Of a stretch of DNA of 64,000 bases, positions 25,125-64,000 are shown one piece after another. Numbering within the stretch: the first letter of the stretch is position 1; each line of letters opens with the position of its first letter. The DNA comes from Candidatus Nealsonbacteria bacterium. Its GTDB lineage: Bacteria; Patescibacteriota; Minisyncoccia; Minisyncoccales; CAZKCU01. A program made the position numbers and the translations under genes. The stretch covers positions 317,307-381,306 of the forward strand of contig CP179888.1 in assembly GCA_047456305.1 (NCBI GenBank). The letters are read 5' to 3'. Below the pieces are notes generated by a model. The model searched no databases and was not told the DNA's origin. It saw nothing but the letters and a program-made list of their open reading frames with translations.

Positions 25125-26807
25125 ATGGGAGAAGTTCTCTTAAATAAATCTGGTAAAAAAAATATTTTATTAGGTAACGAAGCCATTTGTCGGGGAGCTT
25201 TGGAATCAGGGGTTCAATTTGTTTCTACTTATCCTGGAACCCCGGCTTCAGAAATTGGAAATACCTTTTTTAAACTTTCTCAAGCAGGAAAATATAAAGG
25301 TTATTTTGAGTTTTCTACCAATGAAAAAGTAGCTTTGGAAGCAGGAATTGGAGCTTCTTTTTCTGGTTTGAAAACTTTGGTGGCAATGAAAAATTTTGGG
25401 ACAAATGTTGCTTTAGATGCTTTAATTCCCTTTGTTTATACGGGAACCAAAGGCCCTACAGTAATAATATCTGCCGATGATCCTTCCTGCCACAGTTCAG
25501 CTCAATCGGAAGAGAATACCAGAGGGATTTCTTATTTAGCTCATATTCCAACTTTGGAACCTTCTGACCCTCAAGAATGCAAGGATTTTACAAAATTAGC
25601 TTTTAAAATTTCTGAAAAATTCAAAATTCCAGTAATGATAAGAACTACAACCAGAGTTGCTCACCAGCGAGCAATAGTAGAGCTCTCAAATATTCAACAC
25701 CCAAGGTTGGTAAAGGGTGGATTTGTTAAAGACCCTAAAAGATTCGTGACCATGCCTCCGAGAGTTTTAGAAATGAAAAAAGAGCTGCTTAAAAAAATCG
25801 AACAAATCAGAAAATTTTCCGAAAAAAACCCTATAAATTCAATCTCCCGAGCGGTAGCGAAAGGAAAAGAAGAAGATTTATCTTCTTCGCCCTATCGATT
25901 TACGAAATCAATAGATGGAGTGGGGGTGATTACTTCAGGGATTGCTTATTTATATGTAATGGAGGCATTAAATGAGCTTAATTTAAAATTGCCAGTTTTG
26001 AAGCTGGGATTTTTTTATCCCCTGCCGGAAAAGAAAATTCAAAATTTCATTAAAAAATTTAAAAAAGTTTTGATTGTTGAAGAATTAGAGCCATATTTAG
26101 AAAAAGAAATAGAAAGATTAGCAAAAGATGTAAACTCCGAATTAGAGGTAATTGGCAAAAAAATACTATCTGAAGTTGGTGAATTAAAACCCGAAAATGT
26201 AATCTTAGCCATCGCTAAAATTACTGGAAAAAACTACCAACTAAGAACTAAAAACTATCAACTAAAGACTAAGCGTTCTCCTCAGCTTTGTCCAGGTTGT
26301 CCTTATTGGTTAGTTTTTGGAGCAGTTAAAAAAGCGGTTGACTCAAAGAAGGTAATTTTTGGTGGAGACATTGGCTGCTATATGTTGGCTGGCCTGCCTC
26401 CTCATTTCCTTCAAGATTATCTTTCTTGTATGGGTTCTTCAATAGGAATTGCTCACGGGATAAAAAAAGTGACTGGTCAAAAATTAATTACTTTTATTGG
26501 TGACTCAACTTTTTTTCACGCCGGTATCCCAGCTTTGATTAATACAGTTTTCAATAAATCCAATCCTTTAATTATCGTAATGGAGAACCAAACCACTGCA
26601 ATGACCGGTCACCAGCCCCATCCGGGGGCGCCAGCCAAACCAGATGGAATTAAAATAGAAGAAATTGTTAAAGCTTGCGGTGTAAAGAATTTAAAAGTAA
26701 TTGACCCTGTCAATCAAAAAGACTTTATCGCTACCATTAAAGAATTTTTGAACAAAAAAGATGTATCAGTAATTATAGCTCGCCATCCATGCGTAAGGAT
26801 AAAATAG
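25125..26807 (+). CDS. iorA: indolepyruvate:ferredoxin oxidoreductase alpha subunit
   Basis: 560 aa; TPP-binding 2-oxoacid:ferredoxin oxidoreductase pattern, CPGCPY and GDIGCY motifs; followed by iorB. Confidence 0.85.
   Translation: MGEVLLNKSGKKNILLGNEAICRGALESGVQFVSTYPGTPASEIGNTFFKLSQAGKYKGYFEFSTNEKVALEAGIGASFSGLKTLVAMKNFGTNVALDALIPFVYTGTKGPTVIISADDPSCHSSAQSEENTRGISYLAHIPTLEPSDPQECKDFTKLAFKISEKFKIPVMIRTTTRVAHQRAIVELSNIQHPRLVKGGFVKDPKRFVTMPPRVLEMKKELLKKIEQIRKFSEKNPINSISRAVAKGKEEDLSSSPYRFTKSIDGVGVITSGIAYLYVMEALNELNLKLPVLKLGFFYPLPEKKIQNFIKKFKKVLIVEELEPYLEKEIERLAKDVNSELEVIGKKILSEVGELKPENVILAIAKITGKNYQLRTKNYQLKTKRSPQLCPGCPYWLVFGAVKKAVDSKKVIFGGDIGCYMLAGLPPHFLQDYLSCMGSSIGIAHGIKKVTGQKLITFIGDSTFFHAGIPALINTVFNKSNPLIIVMENQTTAMTGHQPHPGAPAKPDGIKIEEIVKACGVKNLKVIDPVNQKDFIATIKEFLNKKDVSVIIARHPCVRIK
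25846..25891 (-). repeat. Family A repeat, copy A5 (reverse), in frame inside iorA
   Basis: CCCGAGC-GGTA-GCGAAAGGAAAA-GAAGAAGAT TT ATCTTCTTC-GCC; translated SRAVAKGKEEDLSSS. Confidence 0.7.
25892..25916. repeat. REP-like palindrome, copy R1, in frame inside iorA
   Basis: CTATCGATTTACGAAATCAATAGAT, same sequence as the copies flanking the Y1 transposase at 62530 and 63060; translated PYRFTKSID. Confidence 0.8.
26232..26273. repeat. 7-nt (21-nt) periodic tandem array H8 inside iorA
   Basis: AACTACC AACTAAG AACTAAA AACTATC AACTAAA GACTAAG; translated KNYQLRTKNYQLKTK. Confidence 0.8.
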
Positions 26808-33107: not shown

Positions 33108-33264
33108 AATTTAAAATAGTAGTTAAAATTCCACGATTATATTATTATATAAAAAGATCGATTTTTAAGCAAGGGTTCCGGGAAGCCGTCCCGGAGGTGC
33201 TATTTTTAAGTAAAGCCCGCCCAAGTATTATCCGAGCGGGTTATTTTTTATGGTGGCCTTCTGT

Positions 33265-33692: not shown

Positions 33693-33776
33693 TGCCGGAG
33701 GTGGGACTTGAACCCACAAGCCCTTGCGGACAGTAGATTTTGAATCTACCCTGTTTTCCAATTTCAGCACTCCGGC
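33693..33776 (-). tRNA. tRNA-Leu (anticodon CAA), class II with long variable arm
   Basis: Reverse complement GCCGGAG..CTCCGGCA acceptor stem; anticodon stem-loop GTAGA-TTCAAAA-TCTAC; variable arm GTCCGCAAGGGCTTGT; T-arm GTGGGTTCAAGTCCCAC; CCA not encoded. Confidence 0.9.
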
Positions 33777-39295: not shown

Positions 39296-39355
39296 CCAGA
39301 GCACATAAATATTATTTATGTGCTCGGCCGAGCACATATGTTATATGTGCTCTGG
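39296..39355. repeat. Family D hairpins D2 and D3 (tandem, mutually complementary)
   Basis: CCAGAGCACATAAAT ATT ATTTATGTGCTCGG then CCGAGCACATAT GTT ATATGTGCTCTGG; overlaps the last 13 codons and the stop of pth. Confidence 0.7.
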
Positions 39356-61260: not shown

Positions 61261-61980
61261 ATGTTTAAAAATATTTTTAAAATTATTACCATCTTTATTA
61301 TTGGAATGGTCGGGGGGATTTTCGCCGATCAAATTTTCTGGCCTTATTTCGTGGAAAGGCCTCTTTTTTATCAATACCGGCTTGAGCAGGCCCCAATTTA
61401 TGTTACCGAAAGAAAAGAAATTATAGTTGAAGAAAATGTTGCTCTAAGAAACGCTATTGAAAAAGTAGAGAAGGCGGTGGTCGGAGTAAAGACAAAAACA
61501 AAAACAGGGAAAATTTTGGAAGGTTCAGGGTTAATTGTTTCTTCAGATGGTCTGGTAGTGACCCTGGCTAATTTAGTTCCTTCAGGTTCCGATATCACTT
61601 TTTTTTGGGAGGGGAAAACGCTCTCATTTCAAATTTTGAAGAGAGATTTGAAAGAAAATTTAGCTTTGATAAAAATCGAGGAAACTAATTTGCCTACTAC
61701 TGGATTTGTTGATTTAGAAAGAATAAAGTTAGGGGAGAGAGTTTTTCTAATGGGTGTAATTTTTGAAAAAGGAAAAGTTCCTAAAAAAGAAGTAAATGAG
61801 GGAATTGTCAAAACTTTTGATGAAAATTCTATTCAAACCAACATCTTTGAAAAAAGTACTTTTTCGGGAAGCCCCTTATTTAATATCGAAGGCAATGCCT
61901 TGGGGTTAAATATAGTTGATAAAGAAGGAAAAGTCACAGCCATTCCCATTTCTAAAATCAAAGACTTCATCGGATTCTAA
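61261..61980 (+). CDS. membrane-anchored trypsin-like (S1C-like) protease without PDZ domain
   Basis: N-terminal TM helix; GSGLIVSSDGLVVT, NLALIKIE, degenerate Ser box FSGSPLF. Confidence 0.5.
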   Translation: MFKNIFKIITIFIIGMVGGIFADQIFWPYFVERPLFYQYRLEQAPIYVTERKEIIVEENVALRNAIEKVEKAVVGVKTKTKTGKILEGSGLIVSSDGLVVTLANLVPSGSDITFFWEGKTLSFQILKRDLKENLALIKIEETNLPTTGFVDLERIKLGERVFLMGVIFEKGKVPKKEVNEGIVKTFDENSIQTNIFEKSTFSGSPLFNIEGNALGLNIVDKEGKVTAIPISKIKDFIGF

Positions 61981-62362: not shown

Positions 62363-62529
62363 TTTCTTCCTCCTTCCTTAATTTTTGACAAATTAAAATT
62401 TATTTATAATCACTCCCAATATTAAATTTTTAATTTACGGATTTATTTGAAAAAGTTACATCGCTCTTGATTTAAAGATACCACAATAAATAAAAAAGTC
62501 AATTTTATAGGTGTGGATTCAATTTATCT

Positions 62530-62556
62530 CTATCGATTTACGAAATCAATAGATTG
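62530..62556. repeat. REP-like palindrome, copy R2 (3' flank of Y1 transposase gene)
   Basis: CTATCGATTT ACG AAATCAATAG ATTG; ends 2 nt from the transposase stop codon. Confidence 0.8.
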
Positions 62557-62558
62557 TA

Positions 62559-63128
62559 TTACTCTAAGATTATTTTTTTTATTTTCTCTAGCTCCATTTC
62601 TTTTAACCAATTTTTAACGTTATCTTTATAATTTTCTGCTCCACCAAAAATTTTCAAAAGAAATTCTCTTTGGGTAACTGATGGAAAATTCTTTTTGCCG
62701 ATATAATCTAAATGGCTAGACCAACGAAAAGAATTTAAAATTTCTACGGCTTTTTGGTAGTTTTGGATTTCCCCTTTTCTCCATTCTGGCATCGTTAAAT
62801 CAAGAGGATTGAAATGGATGTAATAAGGTAAGTGTACAAAATGAAGTTCTGAATTTACTAAAACCAATTTATATCGTCCTTGGAATAAAGTTCCTGATCT
62901 TTTATATTTTTGATTAAAATAATTAGCATAACCCACTCCTATTTTTCTCATAAATTTTGTTAAACCACCTTCTTCTCTTTGTCTTAAAAGTAAATGAAAG
63001 TGATTTGGCATTAAACAAAAGGCTAAAATTTCAACAATCAGTTTTCTTGGTTTTTTAATATATTGATTTACGAAATCAATAGATTGGATTATAGTAAAAT
63101 AAAAGGTTACAATATAAAAAATAACCAA
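62559..63128 (-). pseudogene. RAYT / IS200-like Y1 (HUH) transposase, apparently 5'-truncated
   Basis: CLMPNHFHLLL (HUH motif), GTLFQGRYK, YYIHFNP (catalytic Tyr region). The usual N-terminal YHV.NRG strand is absent, and the annotated N-terminus (..IQSIDFVNQYI..) is encoded by REP copy R3. Confidence 0.65.
63060..63087. repeat. REP-like palindrome, copy R3 (inside the 5' end of the transposase ORF)
   Basis: ATATTGATTT ACG AAATCAATAG ATTGG; perfect 9-bp stem. Confidence 0.8.
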
Positions 63129-63135
63129 TAAATCT

Positions 63136-64000
63136 ATGATTAAACTTAATATTAAAAACTTAACAAGAACTGTGTTTTTAGGAATGTTTTTGTTTGGAGT
63201 AATAACTGGTGCAAACGCCCAACAAACATTACCAAAAGGTGGAGATAGTTATGAGACTGCGGTTAAGCTGGAGCTAGGAAATTATCAAAGAGAGGCAATG
63301 GAAGAGAAAGAATACTTTTATGTAGATGTAAAGGCGGGTCAGGAAATCAATATCAAGTATACCTTCGGTGTTGGGACTGGCAGGGACGGATGGGGCATCC
63401 TGTTTTTATATGATGAAGATAGGACAAATTTAGTTGATAAGTGGGATGCGGTTAGCGAGAATGATTTGAAATCGATTACAATTTCTTGGCTGTCAAATTC
63501 AGAGAAAGATTCTTATAAATACTACATCAAGGCAGGATATGACTATGGTTATGATGTGAGTTCAGTCTCATTTGATATATCATTGACGGACCGCTACGAT
63601 ACCGGAAGTCAAACAGATGCCGGAAACACATTTGAAAAAGCAATGAGTATTACTGCAGGAAACTACACGGCTTACCTTTCTGGAAAAGAGGGCACAGACA
63701 CCAAAGACTTTTATAAAGTAGGAATTAAAAAAGAAGAGAAGTTGACTATTAAAATAACTCCGCCAACTGAGGCAAAGCCCAGTTTGAAAATATATAATAG
63801 CGATAGAGTGGTAATTAAAGAAGAATATGCGCCAAATCCCGGAGCAATTATTCAAGCTTCTTTGACTACAAAAAAAAGTGAAGATCTGTTCGTTAAAGTT
63901 TCCTGTGATAGCTGGTGCAGTAAAAATTTAGTTAAATATGCTTTAAATATCGGAATACAGCCACCACCAGAAGTCGAAACACCGGTTGAGGAAGAAATAG
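63136..64000 (+). CDS. secreted protein with two PPC (bacterial pre-peptidase C-terminal)-like domains, 3'-partial
   Basis: Not in the ORF track because it runs off the window. ATG 63136; signal peptide ..FLFGVITGANA/QQ; two modules GDSYETAVKLELGNY..EYFYVDV and DAGNTFEKAMSITAGNY..KDFYKVGI; open to the window end. Confidence 0.6.
   Translation, partial: MIKLNIKNLTRTVFLGMFLFGVITGANAQQTLPKGGDSYETAVKLELGNYQREAMEEKEYFYVDVKAGQEINIKYTFGVGTGRDGWGILFLYDEDRTNLVDKWDAVSENDLKSITISWLSNSEKDSYKYYIKAGYDYGYDVSSVSFDISLTDRYDTGSQTDAGNTFEKAMSITAGNYTAYLSGKEGTDTKDFYKVGIKKEEKLTIKITPPTEAKPSLKIYNSDRVVIKEEYAPNPGAIIQASLTTKKSEDLFVKVSCDSWCSKNLVKYALNIGIQPPPEVETPVEEEI

Follow-up and report, generated by a model that had tools for sequence, protein, structure and literature searches.

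Within a 64,000-nucleotide (nt) stretch of a Candidatus Nealsonbacteria genome (contig CP179888.1, positions 317,307 to 381,306; hereafter the window) an open reading frame (ORF) for a Y1-type transposase lies on the minus strand, with a short palindrome just past its stop codon and a second copy close to its 5′ end. The feature is probably the 3′ remnant of a gene for a Y1 (HUH) single-stranded DNA transposase resembling those associated with repetitive extragenic palindromic (REP) sequences, the REP-associated tyrosine transposases (RAYTs), together with two copies of its cognate 29-nt REP hairpin. Judged from the alignment with full-length homologues, the palindrome inside the ORF belongs natively to the gene and did not enter it as a foreign REP. 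In this family, intact genes contain, in frame, a copy of their putative target palindrome, and we regard the system as a new variant of the REP/RAYT type in which the cognate hairpin lies inside the enzyme's own ORF. No description of a REP inside a RAYT ORF was found in the literature searched, absence there being no proof of novelty. The features on which the argument is built are as follows; L001, L022 and L129 are related loci described below.

62559..63086, minus strand: retained part of the RAYT-like Y1 gene, equal to codons 57-231 of the intact orthologue, holding the HUH motif and the tyrosine region
63057..63088, minus strand: I-REP, the in-frame palindrome copy (63060-63086 encode QSIDFVNQY)
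62528..62556, minus strand: D-REP, the palindrome 2 nt past the stop codon (TAA), reading CAATCTATTGATTTCGTAAATCGATAGAG on the coding strand; the same position is filled in L001
63087..63128, minus strand: spurious 14-codon N-terminus MVIFYIVTFYFTII, unaligned with orthologues; junction sequence, unrelated to the intact locus from 63089
62417..62527, minus strand: conserved right flank of the locus, common to L001, L022 and L129
25892..25918, plus strand: solitary REP in the inter-domain linker of iorA, in frame and encoding PYRFTKSID

The transposase ORF is a truncated gene

The ORF at 62559-63128 on the minus strand encodes 189 residues and contains PNHFHLLL (the HUH motif) and YYIHFNP (the catalytic tyrosine region), as an earlier note on this DNA, made from the sequence alone, had recognised. 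It matches the Pfam family Y1_Tnp (PF01797) with 37.9 bits (cutoff 23, E 2.2e-9), and only profile positions 38-119 of 121 are covered, so that the N-terminal β-strand and first helix of a complete Y1 domain are not found. Orthologues are 231 residues long and 94-96% identical, P0002 being the closest homologue with 96% identity over 97% of the query; their alignment to the window ORF starts only at Q57, residues 1-56 being missing. The 5′ truncation suspected in the earlier note, and the view that this copy is a remnant, are thereby upheld, and the 189-residue 'transposase' is better treated in annotation as a pseudogene.

The same note had taken the N-terminus to be encoded by an invading REP, and here the alignment leads elsewhere. 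The peptide QSIDFVNQY of the internal palindrome is also present in the full-length 231-residue homologues; the palindrome is therefore native coding sequence, and only the 14 codons 5′ of it (63087-63128) are foreign. Homology between the window and the intact locus L001 starts at 63088 (L001 position 5167), the DNA beyond being unrelated, and the breakpoint 63088/63089 thus falls 2 nt outside the palindrome CAATC...GATTG. Since the retained sequence starts 2 nt outside this internal copy, the palindromes that were seen as bracketing the ORF are the internal (I) and downstream (D) copies of the intact gene. The genes upstream of the L001 transposase were found nowhere in the window, which also holds no second Y1 gene.

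On the other side of the breakpoint a plus-strand gene begins at 63136. The close neighbour in the earlier note is thus real, with a gap of 7 nt, not 8, from the annotated TTG at 63128. Its product (63136-64000) is a secreted protein with homologues of ~340 residues and a best database match of 67% identity; it has no 100% match, unlike other proteins of the same metagenome-assembled genome (MAG), perhaps because the source record leaves the gene without annotation or marks it as a pseudogene. A sigma-70-like −35/−10 pair (TTTACG, 17 nt spacer, TATAGT) at 63067-63095, located 41 nt before the 63136 gene, takes in both the junction and the loop of the I-REP; it is non-significant. The promoter and terminator scan of the locus gave nothing above chance and no intrinsic terminator, and the Rfam search there returned no known RNA family, only sub-threshold chance matches.

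Three palindrome copies in the window

The palindrome occurs three times in the window, at 25892-25918, 62528-62556 and 63057-63088, always on the same strand and with a chance expectation of ~0. Its 13-nt core GATTTACGAAATC has 3 occurrences against 0.13 expected, all on the plus strand, and the 26-mer TATYGATTTACGAAATCAATAGATTG, allowing at most 1 mismatch, likewise has 3 against 0.00 expected (25893-25918, 62531-62556 and 63061-63086, plus strand). The three copies in one orientation and the copy 2 nt after the transposase stop, both reported previously, are thus confirmed, and the iorA copy shares the orientation of the two at the transposase locus. None of the REP copies has a GTAG tetranucleotide; the foot of the hairpin reads CAATCTAT.

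The earlier note had also argued from G:T pairing that the transposase-coding strand is the folded one. For two of the copies (A and B) this is indeed so: a C:A mismatch on the plus strand becomes a G:T wobble on the minus strand, and the DNA folding energies are −5.7 and −4.6 kcal/mol on the minus strand against −3.1 and −2.2 on the plus strand, the third copy (C) having a perfect 9-bp stem on either strand. Across the family, however, the coding strand carries 8 G:T against 5 A:C pairs, which is no signal, and we have rejected the strand bias as a sign of the folded strand. Some of the stem imperfections exist because stop codons are avoided, TAG becoming TAT in the transposase gene and TGA becoming CGA in iorA. 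A separate observation concerns the D-REP loop, which on the coding strand is CGT in the window (62540-62542) and ACG in L001 (5715-5717) in otherwise identical surroundings; the T/G asymmetry of the stem is the same in both, so that only the loop is inverted.

The intact gene in a sister locus and its protein model

L001 (JGI sample 3300022538) is syntenic with the window on the right side, where it shares a gene for a protein of 100/105 residues, a trypsin-like gene and ClpB. It carries an intact 231-residue gene with three direct copies of the palindrome, upstream (U), internal (I) and downstream (D), which have the same stem asymmetry, U and I also having a common loop:

U in L001, 4959-4987: 13 nt before the ATG
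I in L001, 5169-5194: in frame inside the gene
D in L001, 5700-5728: 2 nt after the stop codon

The intact gene is therefore flanked by the cognate REP on both sides, of which the window keeps D, plus the internal copy.

An AlphaFold model of the orthologue P0002 (mean predicted local distance difference test score, pLDDT, 82) places β1 at residues 10-17 and α1 at residues 27-39, both of which are lost from the window copy. The hairpin-encoded residues 47-66 are modelled as a loop and form the sole segment with pLDDT <50. The top Foldseek match to the model is E. coli TnpA_REP (4ER8_A, E 1.4e-5, TM score 0.71 on the target), with the IS608 and ISDra2 transposases ranking next by a small margin. 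Single-sequence search of the PDB gave spurious phosphatase matches only, and the profile search of the PDB reached ISDra2 weakly. With the NCBIfam RAYT equivalog NF047646 the window ORF scores 43 bits and five full-length homologues 32-42, all below the cutoff of 80. Of the RAYT-type identity put forward in the earlier note, a 5′-truncated RAYT-type Y1 gene stands; a canonical RAYT does not, given 42-43 bits against 80, the missing GTAG and the direct orientation of the copies.

An in-frame hairpin throughout the family

The clade counts 4954 database homologues and at least 589 metagenome loci; it is seen mainly in Patescibacteria and appears widespread there. A metagenome scan gave 80 homologous loci, with 72 genes analysable and flanking copies counted on 68 loci. 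A strong in-frame hairpin with a 3-nt loop, 19-27 codons upstream of the HUH motif, is found at 38 of the 72 loci, and 38 of the 40 internal hairpins that score at least 7 use the same reading frame. The best internal stems run to 8-17 bp; most control windows taken from these genes give 4-7 bp. Stems are lineage-specific and show compensatory changes (GATTT/AAATC, GAGGC/GCCTC, GAAGT/ACTTC, GACGT/ACGTC). Their positions are Watson-Crick paired in 89.5% of cases against 57% in shuffles, a fraction that is inflated because the set was selected on hairpin score, the informative part being the diversity of pairs, with 4-5 pair types at several positions. The encoded peptides vary freely (QSIDFVNQY, QSYEAKPRKIE, QYLEVGLPNI and others), and the constraint therefore acts on the nucleic acid. 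Pair 10 is repeatedly a C-T mismatch; in the codon this is TAT in place of TAG, and the frame thus stays open.

The internal hairpin also recurs outside the gene. When the hairpin-centred 25-mer was sought, with at most 5 mismatches, up to 200 nt upstream of the start and up to 100 nt after the stop, it was found upstream at 33 and downstream at 35 of the 68 loci, and on both sides at 25, while control 25-mers in the same comparison averaged 11-12 mismatches. The divergent paralogues at L129 and L022 have unrelated REP sequences in the same U/I/D layout; a further paralogue is at L032.

Transposase genes at the locus are exchanged, replaced or broken

Between the same flanks we found four states of the locus:

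L001: intact gene
L022: one REP by itself, accompanied on the opposite strand by a paralogue of 41% identity
L129: U and the first 22 nt of the gene, then a different paralogue with its own REPs
Window: 3′ remnant

In L022 (4150-5072) a 245-residue RAYT paralogue lies on the opposite strand. Its own REP type, ACCGGGAnnnnnTCCCGGT, is found upstream and again, as an inverted doublet, in frame within the gene. The unit of ~880 nt is bounded by an 18-nt direct repeat, AAACTGTGRAAAACTCAA, that also precedes U in L001 and L129, and exactly one solitary REP is retained between the same flanks. We considered L022 as a simple empty site and rejected this, a divergent paralogue adjoining the solitary REP. 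L129 is the closest relative of the window's right flank, the 100-residue neighbour protein being identical; in the stretch 31-1016, after U and the first 22 nt of the gene, its 256-residue paralogue on the other strand has a GC-rich REP, CCTGTCGGTAnnnnnTACCGACAGG, after the stop, in frame inside and before the start, with the loops flipped. The picture is of a site, marked by hairpins, where transposase genes are swapped, supplanted or disrupted.

The retained coding sequence (62559-63086) differs from L001 at 2 of 528 nt (99.6% identity), whereas the adjacent trypsin-like gene (61261-61980) differs at 64 of 720 nt (91% identity), with 38 synonymous and 26 nonsynonymous changes; the block of high identity reaches ~45 nt past D. 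This disparity suggests a recent exchange between strains by recombination, or a sweep, at the RAYT locus, with the truncation younger still; the copy in the window can almost certainly be taken as inactive and of very recent origin. At L130 (100-720) there is an independent N-truncated homologue (P0083, 172 residues), which starts at the 3′ edge of the internal hairpin; the 3′ end of a different gene lies immediately before it, and partial REP arms are clustered downstream. A further short protein, P0065 (150 residues), is uninformative as a truncation because its contig ends there. The trypsin-like/ClpB synteny is also kept in a Portnoybacteria MAG (L131) and in 2 of the 36 metagenome loci with enough downstream sequence (L046 and L047), at 66-72% identity.

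Solitary copies and the iorA linker

Solitary copies of the palindrome, at least 10 in related genomes and some of them in frame in genes, support the suggestion that it is a dispersed REP-like repeat cognate to the transposase gene. In one genome, CSMAG_2049, the exact pattern has 14 sites, 4 at the RAYT locus (L013) and 10 elsewhere on 9 contigs, in both orientations and with partial tandem arms at some; the window has 1 solitary copy, that in iorA, per 64 kb. The loop co-varies within a genome, being CGT/ACG in the window lineage and CCG/CGG in CSMAG_2049, while in L029 the internal copy and one distal copy have GCG and a second copy CGT. Most solitary copies are intergenic. Those in frame include one in topA (L042, 2869; peptide LSISEINR), one just past the membrane anchor of a capA-like gene, a position that two species share (L009, 5919, and L027, 377; YRFPKSID), and two in a 1297-codon surface protein (L040, 3059 and 3245). 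The earlier note thought it unusual that a REP should enter coding sequence in frame in a reduced genome; in-frame intragenic REPs are already documented (PMC3733652).

The iorA copy, correctly described before as lying within the gene and in frame (PYRFTKSID), belongs to the same REP population as a solitary copy that the gene tolerates. It is free of stop codons and sits in a variable region of a conserved gene, namely the linker before the GxGxITSG motif, which is hypervariable among 120 homologues. The C in its TATCGA makes the copy imperfect and turns TGA into CGA. Its outer left arm is interrupted by a further element:

25845..25892, plus strand: 48-nt in-frame insertion in the outer left arm of the iorA REP (CAATC|...|TATCG)

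The insertion has its own 9-bp palindrome, GAAGAAGATttATCTTCTTC, and is common to the homologues P0122 and P0126; no other copy of it was found in the window. Its placement is ambiguous by 2 nt (CT), and both junctions read C|T, the dinucleotide cut by the studied TnpA_REP enzymes. An iorA contig from the metagenome sample of L001 (L126) has an uninterrupted REP, L127 has a CCG-loop variant of it and L128 a different hairpin, TTTCCGAGGttcggCCTCGGAAA, at the same site. Given these lineage-specific hairpins, the iorA linker looks like a long-lived hairpin site across lineages, on present sequence comparisons. Many iorA orthologues have linker peptides such as IFRGSASES and IDRGRTS, encoded by a different hairpin at least in L128.

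Elsewhere in the window, the intergenic region 33108-33264 contains a pair of GC-rich hairpins, GGTTCCGGGAAGCCGTCCCGGAGG and another that resembles a terminator, for which Rfam gave no match, and an overlapping palindrome pair lies at 39299-39346. The sole Rfam match at gathering score in the whole window is a tRNA at 33693-33776 on the minus strand.

Origin of the remnant

The intact gene has U in its 5′ leader, I in a loop, modelled as disordered, between α1 and the strand preceding the HUH motif, and D past the stop codon; the window lacks U together with codons 1-56, including β1 and α1. The enzyme would bind the hairpins as single-stranded DNA and cut beside them, as does TnpA_REP, which cleaves 5′ and 3′ of REP hairpins at C|T (PMC8266576). 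The rearrangement was then probably REP-directed: either the I hairpin was cut and joined elsewhere by a Y1 enzyme, or recombination took place between I and a further REP copy that stood upstream of what is now the left neighbour. At the breakpoint L001 has GAC|TCCAATC, a sequence that would allow a cut at this place. The internal, flanking and solitary copies change together in each lineage, their match presumably being kept by the specificity of the enzyme, by conversion between copies, or by both.

Several observations weigh against a RAYT-like remnant produced in this way. The base left of the junction is A, not the C expected for a two-sided C|T strand transfer, and the REP lacks the GTAG guide of the studied REPs. 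The left junction partner was not found, the homologues of the left neighbour being at most 67% identical and REP-free upstream (L124 and L125), and no independent contig with the 63088/63089 junction was retrieved from the collections searched, in which the window's genome is absent. About half of the homologous loci have a weak internal hairpin or none. A more ambitious reading, which is conceivable if doubtful, is that the in-ORF copy is a functional cis element of a self-marking transposase that would recognise the hairpin in its own gene or mRNA. If so, it could serve autoregulation, self-limiting cleavage or a master copy that is protected by selection and renews the REP population; the co-variation of I, U, D and solitary copies by lineage would be upheld by selection, and the breaks at the 5′ edge of I in the window and at its 3′ edge in L130 would be footprints of self-cleavage.

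The locus could also be read as an insertion sequence (IS) of the IS200/IS605 type, with U and D as subterminal end hairpins and the window copy as a deletion derivative for which the internal hairpin serves as surrogate left end. As in IS608, the hairpins do all point the same way on a single strand; some strains have the unit and others do not (L001 versus L022), different paralogue units fill the same slot (L022 and L129), and the gene is near-identical in genomes whose flanks diverge by ~9%. The identity that continues for ~45 nt past D nevertheless fits homologous exchange and not precise transposition, and the truncated copy is at its native locus with a conserved right flank and has therefore not moved. 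L022, which is without the 231-residue gene, retains one REP, whereas excision of an IS200/IS605 element leaves none, and solitary REPs are dispersed without the gene. With the trypsin-like/ClpB synteny in L131, L046 and L047 and a RAYT as the best structural match, we think an insertion sequence unlikely.

A different concern is that the junction is an assembly chimera, in which the internal REP of an intact gene was misjoined to a solitary REP upstream of the 63136 gene and the true gene is full-length. It lies at the edge of a ~29-nt repeat, a typical place for misjoins; contigs of relatives often end near these repeats (L131), no independent contig with the junction was retrieved and the 63136 protein has no 100% match in the protein database. 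Yet the final k-mers normally used exceed a 29-nt repeat in length, the contig of origin comes to 639,534 bp and the shared sequence runs 2 nt past the palindrome (TC, before CAATC). Natural rearrangement at the locus is seen in independent assemblies (L022 and L129) and the N-truncated L130 is at another locus, which together make a misjoin quite improbable. That the break is an ordinary deletion or illegitimate recombination, coinciding with the hairpin by chance, must be judged on two junctions, one in the window and one in L130. The first lies no more than 3 nt from the hairpin edge in a gene of ~700 nt, the second breaks at the other edge, and REPs or direct repeats likewise delimit further allelic differences of the locus, so a chance deletion is very hard to credit. 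Finally, the HUH and tyrosine motifs are intact and the retained coding sequence shows no decay, as they would in a functional short isoform of 189 residues; the absence of decay, however, is explained by the youth of the remnant, β1 and α1 of the modelled fold are missing, and the first 14 codons are unrelated junction DNA read from a TTG, with no Shine-Dalgarno sequence seen. We give this last possibility hardly any credence, and retain the RAYT-like remnant as the preferred explanation.

Comparison with known systems

REP/RAYT systems have been characterised mostly in Proteobacteria. The present one resembles the REPtron, a RAYT with its REPs and bacterial interspersed mosaic elements (BIMEs) such as E. 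coli yafM, in having a Y1 HUH gene flanked by a short palindrome that in related genomes is also dispersed, in its fold (4ER8 being the top match) and in the synteny of closer relatives (L131, L046 and L047) (PMC3333891, PMC8266576, PMC2817692). It differs in scoring below the NCBIfam cutoff, in the missing GTAG, in a copy number of tens, not hundreds, in a protein of 231 residues with an extra loop of ~25 residues, and in the cognate REP that lies in frame inside the ORF. The REPs that flank RAYT genes are in inverted orientation (Nunvar 2010, PMC2817692), whereas those here are direct (U, I and D in L001, I and D in the window), an orientation that rests on the loop and one mismatch because the stems are nearly symmetric.

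With IS200/IS605 elements (IS608, ISDra2 and IS200) the system has in common the catalytic fold, presumably the single-strand chemistry, and subterminal hairpins that point the same way (U and D in L001); with its 5′ hairpin near the start codon it is also reminiscent of the structure in IS200 mRNA. Excision of these elements leaves no hairpin, and they insert 3′ of a fixed tetranucleotide. Here, in contrast, L022 keeps a hairpin at a site that lacks the gene, hairpins are also scattered on their own, closer relatives have the locus in synteny and no second full copy is present within the window.

Rickettsia palindromic elements (RPEs) and intragenic REPs (PMC3733652) are similar in that palindromes are tolerated in frame in conserved genes of a small genome. 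In the present case the hairpins found at one gene site are lineage-specific, implying that at this fixed position they are turned over or converted. The present repeat has 29 nt, a length from which RPEs differ, and it has a cognate transposase. The REPIN-RAYT systems of Pseudomonas (PMC3116915, PMC5581495) are comparable in the co-evolution of transposase and repeat and in copies persisting at orthologous positions, while the copies described here are mostly single hairpins, not inverted doublets, and one lies within the transposase ORF.

Set beside these systems, the clade offers a natural, alignable record of enzyme-substrate co-evolution, which bears on how an enzyme and its repeats stay matched: the hairpin is held at one fixed position and frame in the ORF and changes along with the flanking and dispersed copies. 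In the same lineage such repeats persist in frame in essential genes of very small genomes.

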